DNA of 64,000 nt from Planktothrix tepida. Its GTDB lineage: Bacteria; Cyanobacteriota; Cyanobacteriia; Cyanobacteriales; Microcoleaceae. The position numbers and the translations under genes are program-made. This document shows positions 53,864 through 64,000 of this stretch, piece by piece (the stretch's first letter is position 1; each line of letters begins with the position of its first letter). The notes beneath the pieces were generated by a model, which saw nothing but the letters and a program-made list of their open reading frames with translations, made no database searches and was not told the origin of the DNA. The stretch lies in the NCBI RefSeq assembly GCF_904830955.1, contig NZ_LR882970.1; one strand, 5' to 3'.

Positions 53864-55708
53864 TTGGGAATGACCTCAATCCGTACCCCATTTTATCTGT
53901 TTCCAATTGAAATGAATCATTACAACCTGGATTTAACAAAAACTGAAGATATTCTCATCGTTGATGATACACCGGACAACCTCCATTTATTGTCCCGAAT
54001 GCTCACTCGTCAAGGATACAATGTACGCAAAGCTTTAAATGGTGCGATGGCATTAACGGCGGCTCAAACCGTTGCTCCTGATTTAATTCTGCTGGATATT
54101 ATGATGCCAGAAATGGATGGTTATGAGGTTTGTCAGAATCTCAAAGCTAATGCTAAAACCGCAGAAATTCCAGTAATCTTTTTAAGTGCTTTGGATGATG
54201 TTCTCGATAAAGTTAAAGGTTTTCAAGTGGGTGGAGTAGACTATATTACTAAACCCTTCCAATTTGAAGAAGTTTTAGCACGAGTTCAAAATCAATTAGC
54301 ATTACGATCCGCAGAATTGGAAATTCGGGTTTTAAATTCAGAATTAGAAGCACGGGTAAAGGAACGGACTCAGCAACTTGAAGAAGCTAATGCCAAATTA
54401 TTAAAAATGGCCCTTCATGATTCCCTAACGGGTTTACCCAACCGGGCCTTATTAATGACGGATTTACACCAATCCATTCAACGATCTAAAGCTGACCCTA
54501 ATTATCAGTTTGCGGTATTATTTTTAGATTGCGATCGCTTTAAAGTTGTTAATGATTCTTTAGGGCATTTAGTCGGGGATGAACTCTTGATTTTAATTGC
54601 TCGTCGTCTTAACAGTTATATTAAACCCCAGAATACATTAGCCCGTCTAGGAGGAGATGAATTTGCAATTTTATTAACAGAAATTCCCGACTTTCCTCAT
54701 GTTATTGAATTAGCCGATCAGATTTTAGACTCTTTTTCTAAACCTTTTCATTTAGAACGACATGAAGTTTTTATTAATGCCAGTATTGGGATTGTAATCG
54801 GTCATTCAGACTATAATGAACCGGAACATTTACTGCGTGATGCAGACACAGCTATGTATCGAGCTAAAGCATTAGGAAAAGGACAATATCATATCTTTGA
54901 TCCGGTGATGCACGCCGCTGCTTTAGAGCGATTACAGTTAGAAACCGATTTACGTCGGGGTCTGGAACAGCAAGAGTTAGTCGTTCATTATCAACCAATT
55001 GTCGATTTGAATAGCGGAAAAATTGCTGGATTTGAAGCCTTAGTTCGATGGCGTCATCCTGAACGGGGTTTAGTTCCACCTGGTCTCTTTATTCCCATTG
55101 CTGAAGAAACGGGTTTAATTACTCCCATTGGCTATTGGGTTTTATTTGAAGCCTGTCATCAACTGCAAACTTGGCAAAAACAAAATTTAGTGGATTCCCG
55201 TTTATTTGTTAGTGTTAATTTATCTGTTAAACAGTTTACTCAACCCAATTTATTAGAACAAATTGATCAAGTTTTAGAACAAAGTCAACTTGATCCTGAT
55301 TGTTTAAAATTGGAAATTACCGAAAGTGCGATTATGGAGAATGATAAGGATGTAGCTATCATTCTCAAAGAACTCAGAAAACGTCATATTTTAATTAGTA
55401 TTGATGATTTTGGAACGGGTTATTCTTCCCTGAGTTATCTCCATTCTTTTCCGGTTGACACCCTAAAAGTCGATAAATCCTTTGTTCAACGTCTTAACTT
55501 AGAATCGGAAAATGTTGGCTTAATTCCTGTGATTATTAGTTTAGCTAAAACCATGAATATGAGTGTGGTTGCTGAAGGGATTGAATTACCTGAACAATTA
55601 GCCATCCTTAAAGAATTAAATTGTGGATTTGGGCAGGGATATTTCTTTTCTAAACCGTTACCCGGAGAAGAATTAATTAAATTGCTTTCATTAACTCCCC
55701 AATGGTAA
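53864..55708 (+). CDS. Response regulator with REC - GGDEF - EAL domains (c-di-GMP turnover)
   Basis: REC is ILIVDDTPDNLHLL...LILLDIMMPEMDGY. GGDEF is LGGDEFAIL. The EAL domain shows ...EALVRW..., DDFGTGYSSL and KVDKSFV. Confidence 0.85.
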   Translation: MGMTSIRTPFYLFPIEMNHYNLDLTKTEDILIVDDTPDNLHLLSRMLTRQGYNVRKALNGAMALTAAQTVAPDLILLDIMMPEMDGYEVCQNLKANAKTAEIPVIFLSALDDVLDKVKGFQVGGVDYITKPFQFEEVLARVQNQLALRSAELEIRVLNSELEARVKERTQQLEEANAKLLKMALHDSLTGLPNRALLMTDLHQSIQRSKADPNYQFAVLFLDCDRFKVVNDSLGHLVGDELLILIARRLNSYIKPQNTLARLGGDEFAILLTEIPDFPHVIELADQILDSFSKPFHLERHEVFINASIGIVIGHSDYNEPEHLLRDADTAMYRAKALGKGQYHIFDPVMHAAALERLQLETDLRRGLEQQELVVHYQPIVDLNSGKIAGFEALVRWRHPERGLVPPGLFIPIAEETGLITPIGYWVLFEACHQLQTWQKQNLVDSRLFVSVNLSVKQFTQPNLLEQIDQVLEQSQLDPDCLKLEITESAIMENDKDVAIILKELRKRHILISIDDFGTGYSSLSYLHSFPVDTLKVDKSFVQRLNLESENVGLIPVIISLAKTMNMSVVAEGIELPEQLAILKELNCGFGQGYFFSKPLPGEELIKLLSLTPQW

Positions 55709-55711
55709 ATT

Positions 55712-56740
55712 ATGAACCCAGATGAAACTTTTTCAACTCAGGGAAATTTACTCATCATCGATGATGAACCGGATAATATTCGGGTTTTGTCAGCGTTGTT
55801 AACTCAACAGGGATATTATGTCCGCAAAGCCTTAAATGCTGACATGGCAATGATCGCGATTACCGCTTTAAAACCCGATTTAATTTTACTCGATATTAGA
55901 ATGCCCCAGGTCACAGGATATGAGTTATGTAATCAGCTAAAATCCTCTCCAGACACCTATGAAATTCCTATTATTTTTATTAGTGCGCTGAATCAAGTTG
56001 AAGATATTATAAAAGCGTTTTCTGTAGGAGGGGTAGACTATATCACGAAACCGTTCAAAGTTGATGAAGTCTTGGCACGGGTCAAAAATCAGTTAACAAT
56101 TTGTCTGTTAAAACAACAACTAATCGCACAAAATCAAAAATTATTACAACAAAATAATCAATTACAAAATGAAATTAAAACCCGTAAAAAAGCTGAGGAA
56201 AATTTACAAACTGTGAACCGTCAATTGCAAAATTTAGCCTCTTGTGATAGTTTAACCAGTTTAGCTAACCGCCGACATTTTGATGAATATTTTGATCAAG
56301 TTTGGAAACAAATGATCGAAGAACAGCAACCCTTAGCTTTACTGGTTTGTGATTTAGATTATTTTAAAAATTATAATGATCATTATGGACATCCCGCCGG
56401 AGATATTTGCTTGAAATTAGTCGCCCAAGCCTTAGATCGATCTATTAATAATTCTACAGATTTAGTAGCTCGCTATGGTGGAGAAGAATTTGCCATTATT
56501 CTTCCCAATACGGATTTACAAGGAGCACTTAAAGTCGCAAAAACCATTCATCAAGAAGTCCAACGGCTTAAAATTAATCATGAGTATTCAAGGGTGAGTT
56601 CTATTGTAACGGTCAGTATCGGGATTTCTTATGGAATTCCTCAACCGAATACCTCTCCTGAAGAGTTATTAGAAATTGCTGATCAAGCCCTTTATGAAGC
56701 AAAACAAAAAGGTCGGAATCAATATTGTGTTAAAGTATAA
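55712..56740 (+). CDS. Response regulator REC - GGDEF (diguanylate cyclase)
   Basis: REC is LLIIDDEPDNIRVL...LILLDIRMPQVTGY. GGDEF is RYGGEEFAIILP. It starts 4 nt after the upstream gene. Confidence 0.85.
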   Translation: MNPDETFSTQGNLLIIDDEPDNIRVLSALLTQQGYYVRKALNADMAMIAITALKPDLILLDIRMPQVTGYELCNQLKSSPDTYEIPIIFISALNQVEDIIKAFSVGGVDYITKPFKVDEVLARVKNQLTICLLKQQLIAQNQKLLQQNNQLQNEIKTRKKAEENLQTVNRQLQNLASCDSLTSLANRRHFDEYFDQVWKQMIEEQQPLALLVCDLDYFKNYNDHYGHPAGDICLKLVAQALDRSINNSTDLVARYGGEEFAIILPNTDLQGALKVAKTIHQEVQRLKINHEYSRVSSIVTVSIGISYGIPQPNTSPEELLEIADQALYEAKQKGRNQYCVKV

Positions 56741-56741
56741 A

Positions 56742-58037
56742 TTAAAAAATAAAGATTAGCTTTAACTCCCAATTATCCCCATCTCGAATAATCTCAATTT
56801 GGTGAATAAATTCTCGAAAATAAAACCGTCGTTCAGGTTCGGATAAATCTAGCCAAAACTGTGGAATACAAACGGCTTGTGCTGTTTCTTTTAAATTAAC
56901 GGGGGGAAGTTGGGCTAACTTTCCTTGTAATTGAGAAATTTCTGTCCGCAATTTATAAGTTCTTAACTCTGCTGTTTCTAAATCTAATATTCCCGCAGTT
57001 AATAAATCAGGAATTTGTAACAAAATCTCCTGTTTTTGGTTAATCTCCTGAATCATACCTTGTTTAACAATTTGTAAATCCGGTAAATTTAAACTAGAAA
57101 CCGCCTCTGGTAAATCTTGACAAATTCGTTCAATCGTTAACTCTAATCCTGTTTGATAAGATAAGGCTTTGCACTTAGGATTTCGCGGACAATTTGTAGG
57201 ACGTAAATACAAATATTCTTGATCTTTACGATAGGTTGTAACTCGTGAAACCGTCAGGGAAGATTGACATTCTCCACAAACAACTAACCCTGCTAAAGAA
57301 CGCGGCGCACTCGCAGTTCGGGGGGGAAGGCGTTGATTTCGGCGTAATAATCGATCTATCTGGGCGGCTTCATCCCGTGAAATAATCGGAATATGGGTAT
57401 TAGAAATAATCTCCCCATTTTGATATTCTAAATCCCCTCGATAAACCGGGTTTGTTAACCATCGTCGTCCCGTTGTGACAGATATTTTTTTACCATATCG
57501 TTTTTCTAAATAGCGCACCGCACCTCGCAAAGACCCATAAATTAAAAACCGCTCAAAAAACTCTTTAACAATCGGAGAAACGCTGCGATCTAAAATATAA
57601 CGGTCTTTTCCCCGTCGATATCCGTAAGGTGCTTTACCCGGTGGAGGTAAGGTTTTAATTCGATTTTTAGCGTGTCCTTGACGAATGCGGCGACTCCGTT
57701 GGCGATTTTGAATTTCTATCAATAATTGCATTAAATCACTCCGATTAATAGGAGTTTCAGAGGTGTTAAAATCGGATTCTATTGCAATAATATTAATTTG
57801 AAATGATTCTAATTTTTGTAAGCGATCGCTCACTTCTAAAACAGAATCTCCTAACTCTTCTAACCGTCGAATTAATAAATATTCTGGGGGTTCTAAATCA
57901 CAATCTTTCAATAATTGTTCTAGTTCTTCTCTTTCGCCTAAATCTTGATAAACCCGATCCACTTCCCATCCCCAAATTATCCGATCTGGGGGTTGTTCAA
58001 ACAACGGATCAGTATAACAATAAGCAATAATTTTCAT
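56742..58037 (-). CDS. Serine-recombinase-like protein (resolvase domain plus large-recombinase 'recombinase' domain) lacking the catalytic Ser/Arg residues
   Basis: The resolvase-domain core is conserved (LLIRRLEELGDS, IIAIESDFNTSE, NRQRSRRIRQGHAKNRIK...GKAPYGYRR). The recombinase domain is conserved (GRRWLTNPVYRGDL). The N-terminal motif is YCYTDPLFEQ instead of YARVSTxxQ, and LEELGDS stands in place of LDRLGRD. Confidence 0.6.
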   Translation of the reverse strand: MKIIAYCYTDPLFEQPPDRIIWGWEVDRVYQDLGEREELEQLLKDCDLEPPEYLLIRRLEELGDSVLEVSDRLQKLESFQINIIAIESDFNTSETPINRSDLMQLLIEIQNRQRSRRIRQGHAKNRIKTLPPPGKAPYGYRRGKDRYILDRSVSPIVKEFFERFLIYGSLRGAVRYLEKRYGKKISVTTGRRWLTNPVYRGDLEYQNGEIISNTHIPIISRDEAAQIDRLLRRNQRLPPRTASAPRSLAGLVVCGECQSSLTVSRVTTYRKDQEYLYLRPTNCPRNPKCKALSYQTGLELTIERICQDLPEAVSSLNLPDLQIVKQGMIQEINQKQEILLQIPDLLTAGILDLETAELRTYKLRTEISQLQGKLAQLPPVNLKETAQAVCIPQFWLDLSEPERRFYFREFIHQIEIIRDGDNWELKLIFIF

Positions 58038-58411
58038 GCTTCATTTAATTCAATTATATTACCATCAGGATCTTGTGTAAACAAGGCAGCACGACCGGAA
58101 GCACTCATTTGAAAAGAACAATTATAAGTCATTAACTGTTGTTTCGCAGTTTCTAAATCTTCAACAGCAAAAGCCAAATGTCGATTTCGTCCCCATTTCT
58201 GATTATTAACTTGATCGTTAATTACAGTTTCAGCTTGAATTAAATGAATTTGAAACTCACCAATTTGATACCAAATACCCGGAAAATTTAACGGACGTTC
58301 AACTTTTTCTAAGCTTAACACTTGACTATAAAATTGTTCAGATTTTTCTAAATTAGACACTAAAATAGCAGCATGGAGATATTTATTGATTTGCATAATA
58401 TCCAAAAACAA
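58034..58411 (-). CDS. VOC-family (glyoxalase/bleomycin-resistance/dioxygenase fold) protein
   Basis: 125 aa with a H...E metal-ligand pattern typical of VOC. Its stop overlaps the start of the recombinase-like gene (ATGA). Confidence 0.65.
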   Translation of the reverse strand: MFLDIMQINKYLHAAILVSNLEKSEQFYSQVLSLEKVERPLNFPGIWYQIGEFQIHLIQAETVINDQVNNQKWGRNRHLAFAVEDLETAKQQLMTYNCSFQMSASGRAALFTQDPDGNIIELNEA

Positions 58412-58565
58412 AACAATATATTAATTATATAACAGTCCTAAATAAGTAGGCCTATTTTCAATTGACTCAACCCCTAGCAAATATTGAAAATCTGATTAAA
58501 TGGATGCGATCGCTAGTTGCAGAATTTTAATCATCATCCAAGGTGGGCTAAAACCCACCCTATTG

Positions 58566-59363
58566 TTAATTTTTAAAGAGTAAATTAGCGTTAGTGATAC
58601 TAACATACTCCAAGACCTTTTGTTGAAGGTCAGTTTCAATCTCTTTGGGAGTGACAGGTTGAGGATATAATGACAGAATTTCTGTAATTTCTTTGACACA
58701 CAGAGATAGCCGTTGAATATGCTTAGGTGTCATTTTGGTATCGGTGGATAAATCTAAAACCTCCTCAATAGGTGGTACCTCTTGAACTTTAGATTTATCC
58801 TCCTCTCGAACACAAGTTCCCCCATCACAGTCGATGTGTAATTCATGTTGATAATGGGTCGGAATTGCCCACCCTCTTTGTCCGGCGTGTTCATGACCGA
58901 GCTTTTCATTTTCGATATATTCACCTGCGGATTCAAAACGGTGTTCATGCCAGTAGGGGATGGTAAAATAACCAAAGGATTTCCGATATTCTTCAGAATC
59001 AACCAACTCTGAAACCAGGGCACCAACCCCATGACGAACTAAAATATCATCCCATTCATGTAGTTCTTCATTATTTTTGGGGGCTCGTCCTAAAAAATGT
59101 TTACAGGCATTTTCAATAAATTTCATATTAGAGCTATTTTCATAAAAAAGCTCTAAATAAATCGGACGAACTGCTAAACTTTTTAAGAAATGACGAATCC
59201 CTATTTTTCCTTTGATAAAATCTTTTTCTAAATCAACTAATTGTTTCCGTTCAGACTCATATAATTGCCGTTCTAAAACTTGTTGATAAATCTGTTTTAA
59301 AACAAATTCTCGTTCTTCCGGGGAAGCGTCATGACGAGTCGTTACAGGTTGAGTTAACGTCAT
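58566..59363 (-). CDS. Phycobilisome-linker-domain protein (CpcG-like N-terminal domain, atypical C-terminus)
   Basis: VLKQIYQQVLER...IRHFLKSLAVRPIYLELFYE...FIENACKHFLGRAP...EEYRKSFGYFTIPY matches the PBS_linker_poly domain consensus (YRQVF...R.Fv..la.S..Y...f...n.r.ie...kh.LGR...DS.EY...FG...vPY). Confidence 0.65.
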   Translation of the reverse strand: MTLTQPVTTRHDASPEEREFVLKQIYQQVLERQLYESERKQLVDLEKDFIKGKIGIRHFLKSLAVRPIYLELFYENSSNMKFIENACKHFLGRAPKNNEELHEWDDILVRHGVGALVSELVDSEEYRKSFGYFTIPYWHEHRFESAGEYIENEKLGHEHAGQRGWAIPTHYQHELHIDCDGGTCVREEDKSKVQEVPPIEEVLDLSTDTKMTPKHIQRLSLCVKEITEILSLYPQPVTPKEIETDLQQKVLEYVSITNANLLFKN

Positions 59364-59499
59364 AAATAAATTAAACTCCTGTGTGCATTAATATTCCAAA
59401 TCAGCCTGAATTTACCTGCTATTGTATGAGGATTGAAAATATCATTCCTGTGGCTGGGAACGAAGGAACACCCTGAAAAAAATCAACAATCAATCCGTT

Positions 59500-60006
59500 T
59501 TAAACACCACTTCGTTGAACATTTGCCATCAGTTTAGGGGGAGTATCTAACACTTCTAAAACAATATCCATATAGGGTTTTAATAACTGGTTACAGACAC
59601 TAGGTAATTGTTCTTGTAGGCTTTCTTGAAGATAGGTATAAGCTTGAAGGCACTGGACATTTTTTTCGTGGGCGGCTAAAATATTTGCCAGCCACAGCAT
59701 TAAAGATTCCTTAAAAAAGTGAGGGTCATCGCGTAACAAGGCAACAGACATCAAACACATCGTCATCGACATATCATAAACACAGCGTTTGGAATGCTTT
59801 TGCATGATTTCTGGATGAGACAGCATGAATTTCTTCAGGGCTTGTTTAATTAAACCTGCTGATTTTACCCGCAACACTTCATAGGTTTTAGTTCGAGCAT
59901 TTAAGGTCTGAACATACTGATGCAGAGGTTTGAGTTCTGCATTGGTTAAATATCGTCCGTCGCATTGGGTGATTAAGTCATCCCACGTTGAATTAATCGT
60001 TGGCAT
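59500..60006 (-). CDS. Divergent phycobiliprotein-family (globin-like) protein with a conserved bilin-attachment Cys
   Basis: GRYLTNAELKPL...KRCVYDMSMTMCLMSVALL aligns with the allophycocyanin/phycocyanin aRYLSpgEL...aTCLRDMdYYLRLvtY pattern. The Cys equivalent to Cys-81/84 is retained, but the LRD Arg is replaced by Tyr. Confidence 0.6.
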   Translation of the reverse strand: MPTINSTWDDLITQCDGRYLTNAELKPLHQYVQTLNARTKTYEVLRVKSAGLIKQALKKFMLSHPEIMQKHSKRCVYDMSMTMCLMSVALLRDDPHFFKESLMLWLANILAAHEKNVQCLQAYTYLQESLQEQLPSVCNQLLKPYMDIVLEVLDTPPKLMANVQRSGV

Positions 60007-62330
60007 TTTAATCTCCTCTGTCTAGCCAGAATCCTATCTTCTAATTTGATACAAAATTAAATCTAAGTCAAGAAATTGATGTAATTTTTAATAAAAACCC
60101 AATAATTAGTTTATTTTTACAACAGTAATTGTACGGGCAATCATGCCCAATAGATGATCCTGTGTTCACTCTTGTCAAGTGTCAAAAAACGATCCTTTGA
60201 TGAGCCTGCCCTCACCCCACCGATTAGGGAAATCACGCTATGGTGAACATTATAGATCATTGGGGAGAGCCTTACAGGAACATAGAAACATGAGATTATG
60301 CCAATATGAAAGCAGACAGGAGGCAAAAGAGATTACTGTCAACCTTAAACCGAATCTCTACCCTGTCCCCTGGAAATTTATTTCTGAGGTTTATCCCAAA
60401 AGTCCATTAAAATCAACTAAATTATGAGCGTTCTCTGATTTGAAACTGTACGCCTTTAATGAGTCAACCTTTAATTAAATACCATGAGTGTAAAAGACAA
60501 ACCTAAATTTCCCCGAAATCTTCCCATCGGAAGTATTTTATTTTGGTTGGGTGTAATCTTCTTAATTGCTAACCTGACATTACCCGGATTATTCGGGCCA
60601 CAAATTCCTCGTGTTCCCTATAGTTTATTTATTGAACAAGTGGAAGATGGGCAAGTTTCCCAAGTTTATCTCAGTCAAGATCAAATTCGCTATTTAGTAA
60701 AAGGAGAACAGGAAAAACCGGGACAAATCCTATCAACAACTCCGATTTTTGATATGGATTTACCCAAACGTTTAGAAGCCAAAGGCGTTGAATTTGCGGC
60801 TGCCCCACCTCCTCAGAATACTTGGTTTTCGAGTTTAATTGGTTGGGTAGTTCCCCCCTTAATTTTTGTGGGAATTTGGGTGGCTGTCGGACAATTCTTA
60901 CAAAGCCGAGGGGGAGGAATTGGAGGGCCACAAGGGGCACTTTCCATTAGTAAGAGTAAAGCCAAAGTTTATGTGGAAAATGATGCCACAAAAGTCACGT
61001 TCAAAGATGTGGCAGGGGTTGAAGAAGCCAAAACCGAATTAGAAGAAGTGGTGGAATTTCTTAAGACTCCCCAACGATTTTTACAAATCGGAGCCAGAAT
61101 TCCTAAAGGCGTATTATTAGTCGGCCCTCCTGGAACCGGAAAAACCTTATTAGCTAAAGCCGTAGCCGGAGAAGCGGGTGTTCCATTCTTTAGCATTTCG
61201 GGTTCAGAATTCGTCGAATTGTTCGTTGGCGCAGGGGCAGCGCGGGTTCGAGATTTATTTGAACAAGCCAAAAAGAAAGCCCCTTGTATTATCTTTATTG
61301 ATGAATTAGATGCCATTGGAAAATCACGGTCGAGTGGCGGAATGTATGGGGGAAATGATGAACGAGAACAAACCCTAAACCAGTTATTAACCGAAATGGA
61401 TGGGTTTGCAGCCGGACAAGCAACGGTAATCGTTTTAGCGGCTACAAACCGCCCGGAAACGTTAGACCCCGCCTTACTGCGTCCCGGTCGATTTGATCGT
61501 CAAGTTTTAGTGGATCGTCCTGATTTATCCGGTCGGTTACTAATTTTAGAAATCTATGCTAAAAAAGTTAAAATTGGGACGGATGTTGACTTAAAAGCGA
61601 TCGCCACTCGTACCCCCGGTTTTGCAGGGGCAGATTTAGCCAATTTAGTTAATGAAGCTGCCTTATTAGCCGCTCGAAATAAACGGGAAACCGTCAGCCA
61701 AGCGGACTTTGCAGAAGCCATTGAACGGGTAGTTGCGGGGTTAGAAAAAAAATCCCGTGTTCTCAATGAAAAAGAGAAGAAAATTGTGGCTTATCATGAA
61801 GTCGGTCACGCGATTGTTGGCGCTGTTGTTTCTGGTCAAAATAAAGTGGCTAAAATCTCCATTGTGCCACGCGGAATGGCTGCATTAGGATATACCTTAC
61901 AACTGCCAACCGAAGACCGTTTCTTACTCAGTGAAGAAGAAATGAAAGCCGAAATTGCCACCTTATTAGGGGGGCGTTCAGCCGAAGAAGTTGTATTTGG
62001 AAGTATTACCACAGGGGCTACCAACGACTTACAACGGGCGACGGATTTAGCTGAACGAATGGTTACCAGTTATGGCATGAGTAAAGTATTAGGGCCGTTG
62101 GCTTATGAAAAGGGTCAACAAAACAATTTCCTCGGCGATAATATGATGATGAATCCTCGCCGTTATGTCAGTGATGAAACGGCAAAAGCCATTGATGATG
62201 AGGTGAAACAACTGGTTGAACAAGCCCATCAAACCGCTTTGGATATCCTGAATCAAAATAAAGATTTAATGGAGCAAATTGCCCAACAAATCTTACAAAC
62301 GGAAGTCATTGAAGGGGAAAATCTGCAACA

Positions 62331-64000
<1,670 letters not shown>

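Follow-up and report, generated by a model that had tools for sequence, protein, structure and literature searches.

A catalytically degenerate large serine recombinase homologue of cyanobacteria, conserved beside a VOC-family gene

Background

Large serine recombinases (LSRs) are familiar from phages, transposons and developmental excision elements, and have become widespread tools of genome engineering. Small serine recombinases such as the Tn3 and gamma-delta resolvases also repress their own operon by binding res. We know of no catalytically dead LSR that has been kept as a host gene, and none is described in the literature searched. Here we analyse a gene, hereafter REC, that occupies positions 56742..58037 (minus strand; stop codon 56742-56744) of a 64,000-nucleotide stretch of the Planktothrix tepida genome (the window) and that encodes a 431-aa LSR homologue in which the catalytic residues have been replaced. 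Directly upstream of REC on the same strand (58034..58396) there is a gene for a 120-aa protein of the vicinal oxygen chelate superfamily with a glyoxalase fold, hereafter VOC. An earlier note on this DNA, made from the sequence alone, had taken REC for a domesticated recombinase and possibly a DNA-binding regulator.

The best-scoring curated family for REC is XisF (NCBIfam NF041201; 139.8 bits over residues 35-416), the LSR that excises the fdxN element of heterocystous cyanobacteria. XisF and REC belong to the same phylum and share the same four-module architecture, and XisF-like canonical LSRs were the nearest proteins outside the REC family in a search of 1.84 billion proteins. However, this score falls well short of the 375 bits required of an equivalog, XisF-like proteins share only 24-31% identity with REC, the catalytic R/S/R/R set is absent, and REC is found neither on nor beside an interrupting element and is present in non-heterocystous and unicellular cyanobacteria. 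The phage and prophage integrases (A118/LI Int, Bxb1, phiC31 and SPbeta SprA) differ from REC in that the latter lacks the nucleophile and the arginines, has an acidic N-terminal domain, is devoid of att sites, recombination directionality factor (RDF) and prophage context, is inherited vertically, and is absent from phage, plasmid and IMG/VR collections. Whereas the Tn3 and gamma-delta resolvases are active, transposon-borne and provided with a simple helix-turn-helix C-terminal domain, REC is an LSR-type host gene whose product is predicted to be inactive. The behaviour that we propose for it, att binding without a nucleophile, is that of engineered LSR mutants such as PLE2 Int S12A (PMC9638900) and phiC31 Int S12A. 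These laboratory mutants keep the arginine pocket, whereas REC represents a natural lineage in which the whole pocket has been remodelled.

Results

Loss of the catalytic residues was examined by aligning the window REC with 24 representatives of its family, 10 canonical LSRs from the same database search and gamma-delta resolvase, the reference sequence of which was verified as identical to 1GDT_A and whose numbering is used here for the canonical catalytic residues. The two degenerate motifs quoted in the earlier note, YCYTDPLFEQ and LEELGDS, are exact and correspond to residues 6-15 and 59-65 of REC. With respect to gamma-delta, the changes are R8 to Y8, S10 to D10, D67 to E60, R68 to E61 and R71 to D64, and they fall into two pseudo-active-site segments, residues 5-14 (AYCYTDPLFE instead of the canonical GYxRVSxxxQ; 57996..58025, minus strand) and residues 57-65 (RRLEELGDS instead of xRLDRLxRx; 57843..57869, minus strand). 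The residues at the catalytic positions were next counted in an extended alignment of 251 family members and 31 canonical LSRs. The R8 column contained Arg in 31/31 canonical proteins and in no family member, 245 of the latter having Tyr. At S10, Ser was present in all 31 canonical LSRs and absent from the family, which displayed D (188), N (29) or E (5), and at R71 the canonical Arg (31/31) was likewise replaced throughout by D (216), N (19) or E (14). At R68 (31/31 Arg in canonical proteins) the family had E in 193 members, D in 43 and R in two. The neighbouring D67 column, in which 25 of the 31 canonical proteins carry D, showed mostly E (172) or A (44), and Q19 (30/31) was replaced by P, A or T. 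Other positions, namely Y6 (250/251), D36, R45 and G70, were kept. Among the deep members of the representatives alignment, position 10 was occupied by D, N, E, A, P or H; one of them (P0131) had a Ser in the S10 column but lacked all three arginines. The residues equivalent to R8, S10, R68 and R71 are listed as essential in Bxb1 and phiC31 (PMC12884075).

A profile-profile alignment by hhalign (probability 100%, E 1.7e-58, 386 columns) reproduced the placement of E60, E61 and D64 onto D67, R68 and R71 and left the first 22 residues of REC unaligned, which indicates that the strand-1/helix-A region has strongly diverged. A shifted Ser/Arg set, which would mean an active recombinase, was not found, there being no conserved Ser or Arg in residues 1-26 of the family. 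The absence of the catalytic Ser and of all three arginines that the earlier note had read in the sequence is confirmed by the alignments, and hhalign agrees for R68 and R71. REC fails to present the features that define a serine recombinase as an enzyme (nucleophile, arginines and recombination sites), and neither cleavage nor exchange would be expected of it. The residues now found at the catalytic positions are in turn conserved, with Y8 in 98% of the members and acidic residues in 94% (position 61) and 92% (position 64, D or E), a pattern that argues for a new role of the former active site and not for mere loss. The constellation formed by Y8, D10, E60/E61 and D64 suggests a new surface for a ligand, a metal or a partner, the candidates being a metal, a basic ligand and the VOC protein.

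In spite of these replacements, REC is structurally an LSR. It contains all the modules of these proteins, that is, a resolvase-fold N-terminal domain, helix E, a recombinase domain, and a zinc ribbon with a coiled coil. Pfam detected Resolvase (PF00239; 29.4 bits, cut-off 23.3, profile positions 36-140 only) and, also above their curated cut-offs, Recombinase (PF07508; 46.5 bits, residues 154-234) and Zn_ribbon_recom (PF13408; 30.2 bits, residues 248-292). The AlphaFold2 model, built on a 74-sequence alignment, had a mean pLDDT (predicted local distance difference test) of 83, without a disordered segment. When this model was compared with the PDB by Foldseek, the top matches were full-length serine integrases (SPbeta integrase-RDF complexes, Bxb1 and phiC31; E 1e-17 to 1e-11), followed by the LI/A118 integrase-DNA complex, and phiC31 S12A complexes were among the matches. 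Pfam, model and Foldseek agree with the resolvase fold and LSR recombinase domain assigned in the earlier note.

The modules, all given here on the minus strand, differ markedly in charge and conservation. The N-terminal domain (residues 1-98; 57744..58037) is degenerate, has a shortened helix-A region and is acidic, with a net charge of -14 and a pI of 4.1, as against net charges of -1 to +3 in canonical relatives. Helix E (residues 99-128, which are also the helix limits in the model; 57654..57743) is basic (net charge +7) and bears in its C-terminal half the motif QRSRRIRQGHAxNR, with S115, R116, H122, A123, N125 and R126 invariant or nearly so. The linker plus recombinase domain (residues 129-240; 57318..57653), with the motifs LPPPGKAPYGYRRGK and WLTNPVYRGD, is the best-conserved module (mean majority frequency 0.83, 50 of 112 positions conserved at 90% or more) and has a net charge of +12. 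The short linker leading from it to the zinc ribbon is conserved at 90% or more in 8 of 10 positions. Among the zinc-ribbon cysteines (CxxC ... Cx5C; 57171..57278), C254, C257 and C283 were invariant and C289 nearly invariant in 74 sequences, and the net charge of this module is +5. Finally, an antiparallel coiled coil is predicted for residues 321-376 (56910..57077; model helices 321-347 and 353-376) with the tip GILDxET at 349-355, for which the counts among the 251 members were 228 for G349, 250 for D352, 208 for E354 and 228 for T355, and in the adjoining helix 249 for R359 and 243 for Y361.

To define the extent of the family, we carried out a pattern scan with one genome per GTDB species, which yielded at least 549 candidate loci, and examined the best 80. 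These were all from different cyanobacterial species and each carried one chromosomal REC copy with an intact open reading frame (ORF). Homologues from Planktothrix and its nearest relatives showed 87-93% identity. The values fell to 63-74% across Oscillatoriales, Nostocales, Chroococcidiopsidales, Pleurocapsales, Coleofasciculaceae and Leptolyngbyales, and to 42-46% in Thermostichales and Gloeomargarita; the deep members include Synechococcus sp. JA-3-3Ab (ABD00507.1), Gloeomargarita and Elainellaceae. The phylogenetic distribution that the earlier note had asked for hence spans many cyanobacterial orders. The family is sharply bounded: in an exhaustive HMMER search of 1.84 billion representatives, no full-length member scored below 260 bits or had less than 41% identity, and the next proteins were canonical LSRs with at most 85 bits and 24-31% identity. 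In a neighbour-joining tree rooted on canonical LSRs, Nostocales were monophyletic and sister to Chroococcidiopsidales, Pleurocapsales and Coleofasciculaceae were each coherent, Leptolyngbyales were basal to the crown, and Thermostichales and Gloeomargarita were deepest. The REC tree follows the accepted species relationships and vertical inheritance accounts for it. REC appears to have been retained for most of cyanobacterial history, from Thermostichales/Gloeomargarita to Nostocales.

Nei-Gojobori dN/dS ratios between the window REC and five related loci were 0.08-0.15 for the whole gene and 0.05-0.18 for the N-terminal domain. REC is a functional gene under purifying selection and not a remnant, and the constraint extends to its dead domain. 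Searches of 72,556 plasmids, 50,697 phage genomes and the contigs of IMG/VR detected no family member, the only matches being canonical integrases at 27% identity or less. Similarly, the window contained no second recombinase-like gene, no long repeats flanking the REC/VOC pair, no att-like sites flanking REC, and no sign at REC of an interrupted gene or of a gene-interrupting element. The GC content of the locus (36.1%) showed no anomaly with respect to that of the window (38.6%), and in Planktothrix loci the synteny around REC was conserved, with housekeeping neighbours. These results bear out the absence of mobile-element context and, together with the bounded, single-copy and vertically inherited family, the domesticated state proposed at the outset. 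A profile search with divergent members, aimed at model cyanobacteria, led back to the crown-group proteins already collected, all of them named simply 'recombinase family protein'; databases label the family with this name or as 'DNA invertase Pin-like', and full-text literature searches disclosed no published description of it.

In the window, the stop codon TGA of VOC and the start codon ATG of REC overlap in an ATGA (58034-58037, minus strand, within GCATGAAAA), as the earlier note had indicated. For VOC itself, the ATG at 58396 is more likely to be the start than a TTG at 58411 (125 aa; 58034..58411, minus strand), because the 120-aa product is 100% identical to the annotated P. tepida VOC protein. 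We mapped the window neighbours onto the 80 loci by tblastn and found a VOC orthologue (56-86% identity) directly upstream of REC and on the same strand in 68 loci. In two more the VOC copy was cut by the contig end, and four loci ended just upstream and could not be assessed. Gene order and strand are accordingly kept in about 92% of the assessable loci (68 full plus 2 truncated of about 75), and unsupervised clustering of ORFs across loci identified VOC as the sole neighbour conserved beyond a single order. Four loci (L021, L042, L071 and L078) had other sequence upstream of REC. In Kamptonema sp. UHCC 0994 (locus L016, 5909-5998), a 31-aa C-terminal remnant of VOC with 81% identity, preceded by an unrelated 518-aa ORF, stands before an intact REC; here VOC has been lost in nature while REC was kept. 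In a deep member with 48% identity, from a 3.8-Mb genome (locus L085, 3135-3997), REC is preceded by two VOC genes in tandem (142 and 126 aa), and 3 nt lie between the end of the second and the REC start.

The spacing between both genes was more variable than their order. The 4-nt ATGA overlap was present in 10 of the 68 loci and a spacing of 8 nt or less in 20, the median being about 52 nt and the largest distance about 1.1 kb. The translational coupling inferred from the window is therefore a feature of Planktothrix and a few other genera, whereas what is conserved in general is gene order and strand. In Nostocales loci (L019, L023, L026, L032, L037, L046, L049, L059, L069, L079 and others) the VOC-REC gap is filled by heptamers of the short tandemly repeated repetitive (STRR) type, (ACTAATG/ACCAATG/ACAAATG)n, over the ~50-130 nt that precede REC. 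The array runs in register into the gene, so that the REC ATG belongs to the last repeat, and species differ in the number of repeats.

The VOC protein matched Glyoxalase PF00903 (40.4 bits, cut-off 20.6) and PF12681 (32.4 bits, cut-off 30.1), which places it, as a protein with the paired beta-alpha-beta-beta-beta domain, in the VOC superfamily. Residues H8, H51, H73 and E116 were conserved in at least 95% of the 68 loci, and the motifs KWGRN and SASGR-x-A-x-F-x2-DPDGN were conserved as well; this conservation is consistent with an intact metal or ligand site. With glyoxalase I GloA (NF050074 / TIGR00068) the scores were 31.9 bits (cut-off 165) and 26.3 bits (cut-off 120), and the protein matched no characterised equivalog of NCBIfam. 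As compared with the H/E/H/E tetrad, H8, H73 and E116 are kept and the second ligand aligned to the Q49/H51 region and not to a Glu, the comparison with an E. coli GloA sequence being approximate. The best family and structure match was the SMU1112c/YaeR-type single-domain VOC (NF050075, 40.3 bits; PDB 3l7t), with which it shares the fold and metal-type ligands of the His/His/Glu kind. However, this score is below the equivalog cut-off of 140, and the second ligand is apparently His/Gln rather than Glu. The only sequence match in the PDB was the same 3l7t, an uncharacterised protein (E 8e-6), and the VOC orthogroup was confined to cyanobacteria among the matches listed.

Discussion

We lean, although by no great measure, towards REC being an anciently exapted LSR that has become a host gene with a regulatory or architectural role in binding or bridging DNA. 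Early in the history of cyanobacteria its ancestor, a relative of the XisF-like cyanobacterial LSRs, would have lost the Ser nucleophile together with the three Arg of the active site, and the gene would then have been passed on vertically, in single copy and on the chromosome. The parts kept would be those used in DNA binding and bridging, namely the basic C-terminal half of helix E, the PPPG-KAPYGYRRGK linker, the recombinase domain, the zinc ribbon and the coiled coil. Such a role is proposed because the recombinase and zinc-ribbon modules, basic and best conserved in REC, are the DNA-contact regions of LSRs. It has been shown that PLE Int S12A retains attP binding in vitro and in vivo and that LSR binding is separable from catalysis (PMC9638900). 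Since DNA binding by LSRs is independent of the nucleophile, binding without cutting is plausible for REC. A REC dimer, held by the N-terminal domain and helix E, could bind a specific att-like site without cleaving it, and the coiled-coil tip might then provide dimer-dimer contacts (DNA bridging or looping) or contact a partner protein. REC would be co-transcribed with VOC in most lineages and translationally coupled to it in Planktothrix, VOC being probably a functional partner or co-regulated cargo. A more specific proposal, which we put forward tentatively and regard as possible rather than probable, is that REC is a site-specific DNA-binding or bridging factor, that its Tyr/acidic pocket senses a metal, a small molecule or the VOC protein, and that both genes make up a signal-responsive regulatory or chromosome-organising module specific to cyanobacteria.

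Several observations speak against a DNA-binding role or against its dependence on VOC. No conserved DNA target was found by k-mer analysis and blastn in the regions upstream, between and downstream of the genes in the 80 loci, and the k-mers of the dereplicated 200 nt upstream of VOC and downstream of REC were AT-rich words, with promoter-like TTTAGATT/TAAAAT strings only. The DNA-binding regulator suggested in the earlier note is thus supported by the conserved basic modules and not by any conserved operator-like site. The acidic N-terminal domain, which in the canonical LSR dimer lies beside the DNA, might by analogy weaken binding at the centre of the site. Moreover, VOC is missing next to REC in Synechococcus JA-3-3Ab (where REC is located between an S1-domain gene and chlL/chlN-type genes), in Gloeomargarita and in one other deep lineage, so that VOC is not obligatory for REC function and the pairing, though widespread, is not universal. 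One operator candidate, a perfect 9-bp inverted repeat (ATTTTCAAT/ATTGAAAAT, 20-nt spacer, 58454-58491) in the putative promoter region upstream of VOC, was rejected because it was not conserved in other Planktothrix. The recurrent matches that all-against-all blastn-short produced among the upstream, gap and downstream regions were also discarded, as on alignment they were generic STRR-type heptamers of Nostocales.

The lack of a DNA site near VOC-REC would fit a role other than DNA binding, in which REC is a scaffold or regulatory subunit for VOC or another protein, or binds RNA, its recombinase domain and zinc ribbon being reused as interaction modules. The tightly conserved gene order, the close spacing (8 nt or less) of almost a third of the pairs and the conserved putative metal ligands of VOC point in the same direction. 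However, REC does without an adjacent VOC in the three deep lineages and in several crown genomes, no VOC-REC fusion protein appeared among the homologue-search matches, and the most conserved and most basic segments of REC are precisely the DNA-contacting modules of LSRs, and we consider this explanation unlikely. A different possibility is that REC acts as a non-catalytic partner, regulator or decoy of active serine recombinases of the XisF type, controlling developmental or prophage excision either by co-assembly through helix E or the coiled coil or by occupying XisF-type sites. The coiled-coil motif of LSRs mediates subunit-subunit and RDF contacts, and a highly conserved tip in a protein whose closest active relatives are XisF-like cyanobacterial LSRs would be in keeping with such a function. 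Nevertheless, REC genes also occur in many lineages that are unicellular or form no heterocysts (among them Planktothrix, Gloeocapsa, Synechococcus JA-3-3Ab and Gloeomargarita), and they follow the species tree, in contrast to the sporadic occurrence of active LSRs and the elements that carry them. Moreover, no second LSR is encoded in the 64-kb window, and specific heterotetramers with a partner of 24-31% identity are hardly to be expected, all of which makes this hypothesis quite improbable.

It could also be argued that REC still cleaves or rearranges DNA by a non-canonical catalysis, in which for example Tyr6 or Tyr8 serves as the nucleophile or the acidic cluster holds a metal. Both tyrosines are conserved (Y6 in 250 and Y8 in 245 of 251 members), the place of the phosphate-binding arginines has been taken by a conserved acidic set (D10, E60, E61 and D64), and the N-terminal domain is under purifying selection. 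Against this, all three arginines that stabilise the transition state are lost, two of them with charge reversal, Q19 is lost too, the helix-A region is shortened, position 10 is variable in deep members, and REC has no flanking repeats or att-like sites. We know of no precedent for a resolvase-fold recombinase dependent on Tyr or on a metal, and hold this explanation to be very unlikely. As for REC being a pseudogene in formation, left behind by a defunct integrated element, the lost catalytic residues and a Pfam Resolvase match limited to profile positions 36-140 might suggest it. It is refuted by the conservation data, since the ORF is intact in 80/80 loci, dN/dS is about 0.1, identity across orders is 63-74%, the tree is congruent with that of the species and the replacement residues are conserved, and we give it practically no credence.

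If REC is an exapted LSR, it would provide a clear example, from bacteria, of a site-specific recombinase that has undergone molecular domestication. The overall structural class is known, and what is new is a natural, dead and host-adopted LSR lineage with a conserved VOC partner. REC would offer an entry to a strongly selected function in an ecologically important phylum, and a natural experiment on which LSR surfaces are needed for DNA recognition and coiled-coil assembly once the chemistry has been removed. In practical terms, the labels 'recombinase family protein' and 'DNA invertase Pin-like' wrongly suggest mobile DNA, and pipelines that mine genomes for integrases will collect these proteins as false candidates.

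Surroundings of the gene pair

The annotated neighbours of the pair are ordinary host genes, with phycobilisome linker and phycobilisome protein genes upstream, and ftsH. Two response-regulator GGDEF/EAL genes converge with REC; they encode a receiver-GGDEF-EAL protein (614 aa) and a receiver-GGDEF protein (342 aa), adjoin each other at 53864-56740 with 3 nt between them, and a single base separates the stop of the second (56740) from the REC stop codon (56742). An Rfam scan of 55500-60500 gave nothing relevant, and neither REC nor the VOC protein matched any family in the PADLOC anti-phage defence models. A GC-rich, terminator-like hairpin (58542..58559, minus strand) after the upstream phycobilisome-linker gene, also present in other Planktothrix loci, putatively sets the 5' boundary of the transcription unit formed by VOC and REC. 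A near-consensus sigma-70-like site (TTTACA-17-TATAAT, 11/12 matches; 58081..58053, minus strand) lies within the 3' end of VOC, 16 nt upstream of the REC ATG. It is probably a by-product of coding, because both hexamers fall in conserved codons (Phe-Thr; Asn-Ile-Ile); otherwise, it may be an internal promoter from which a nearly leaderless REC mRNA would be made.

At some distance from the pair, the window carries a tandem array (62330-63303) with a period of 195 nt, 5.0 copies and 99% matches. The array starts within the last ~50 nt of the ftsH ORF (60484..62382), and its unit consists of the ftsH 3' end and some 140 nt lying beyond it. Further on, from about 63459, there is a second ftsH paralogue that is 72-76% identical to the first in nucleotide sequence.

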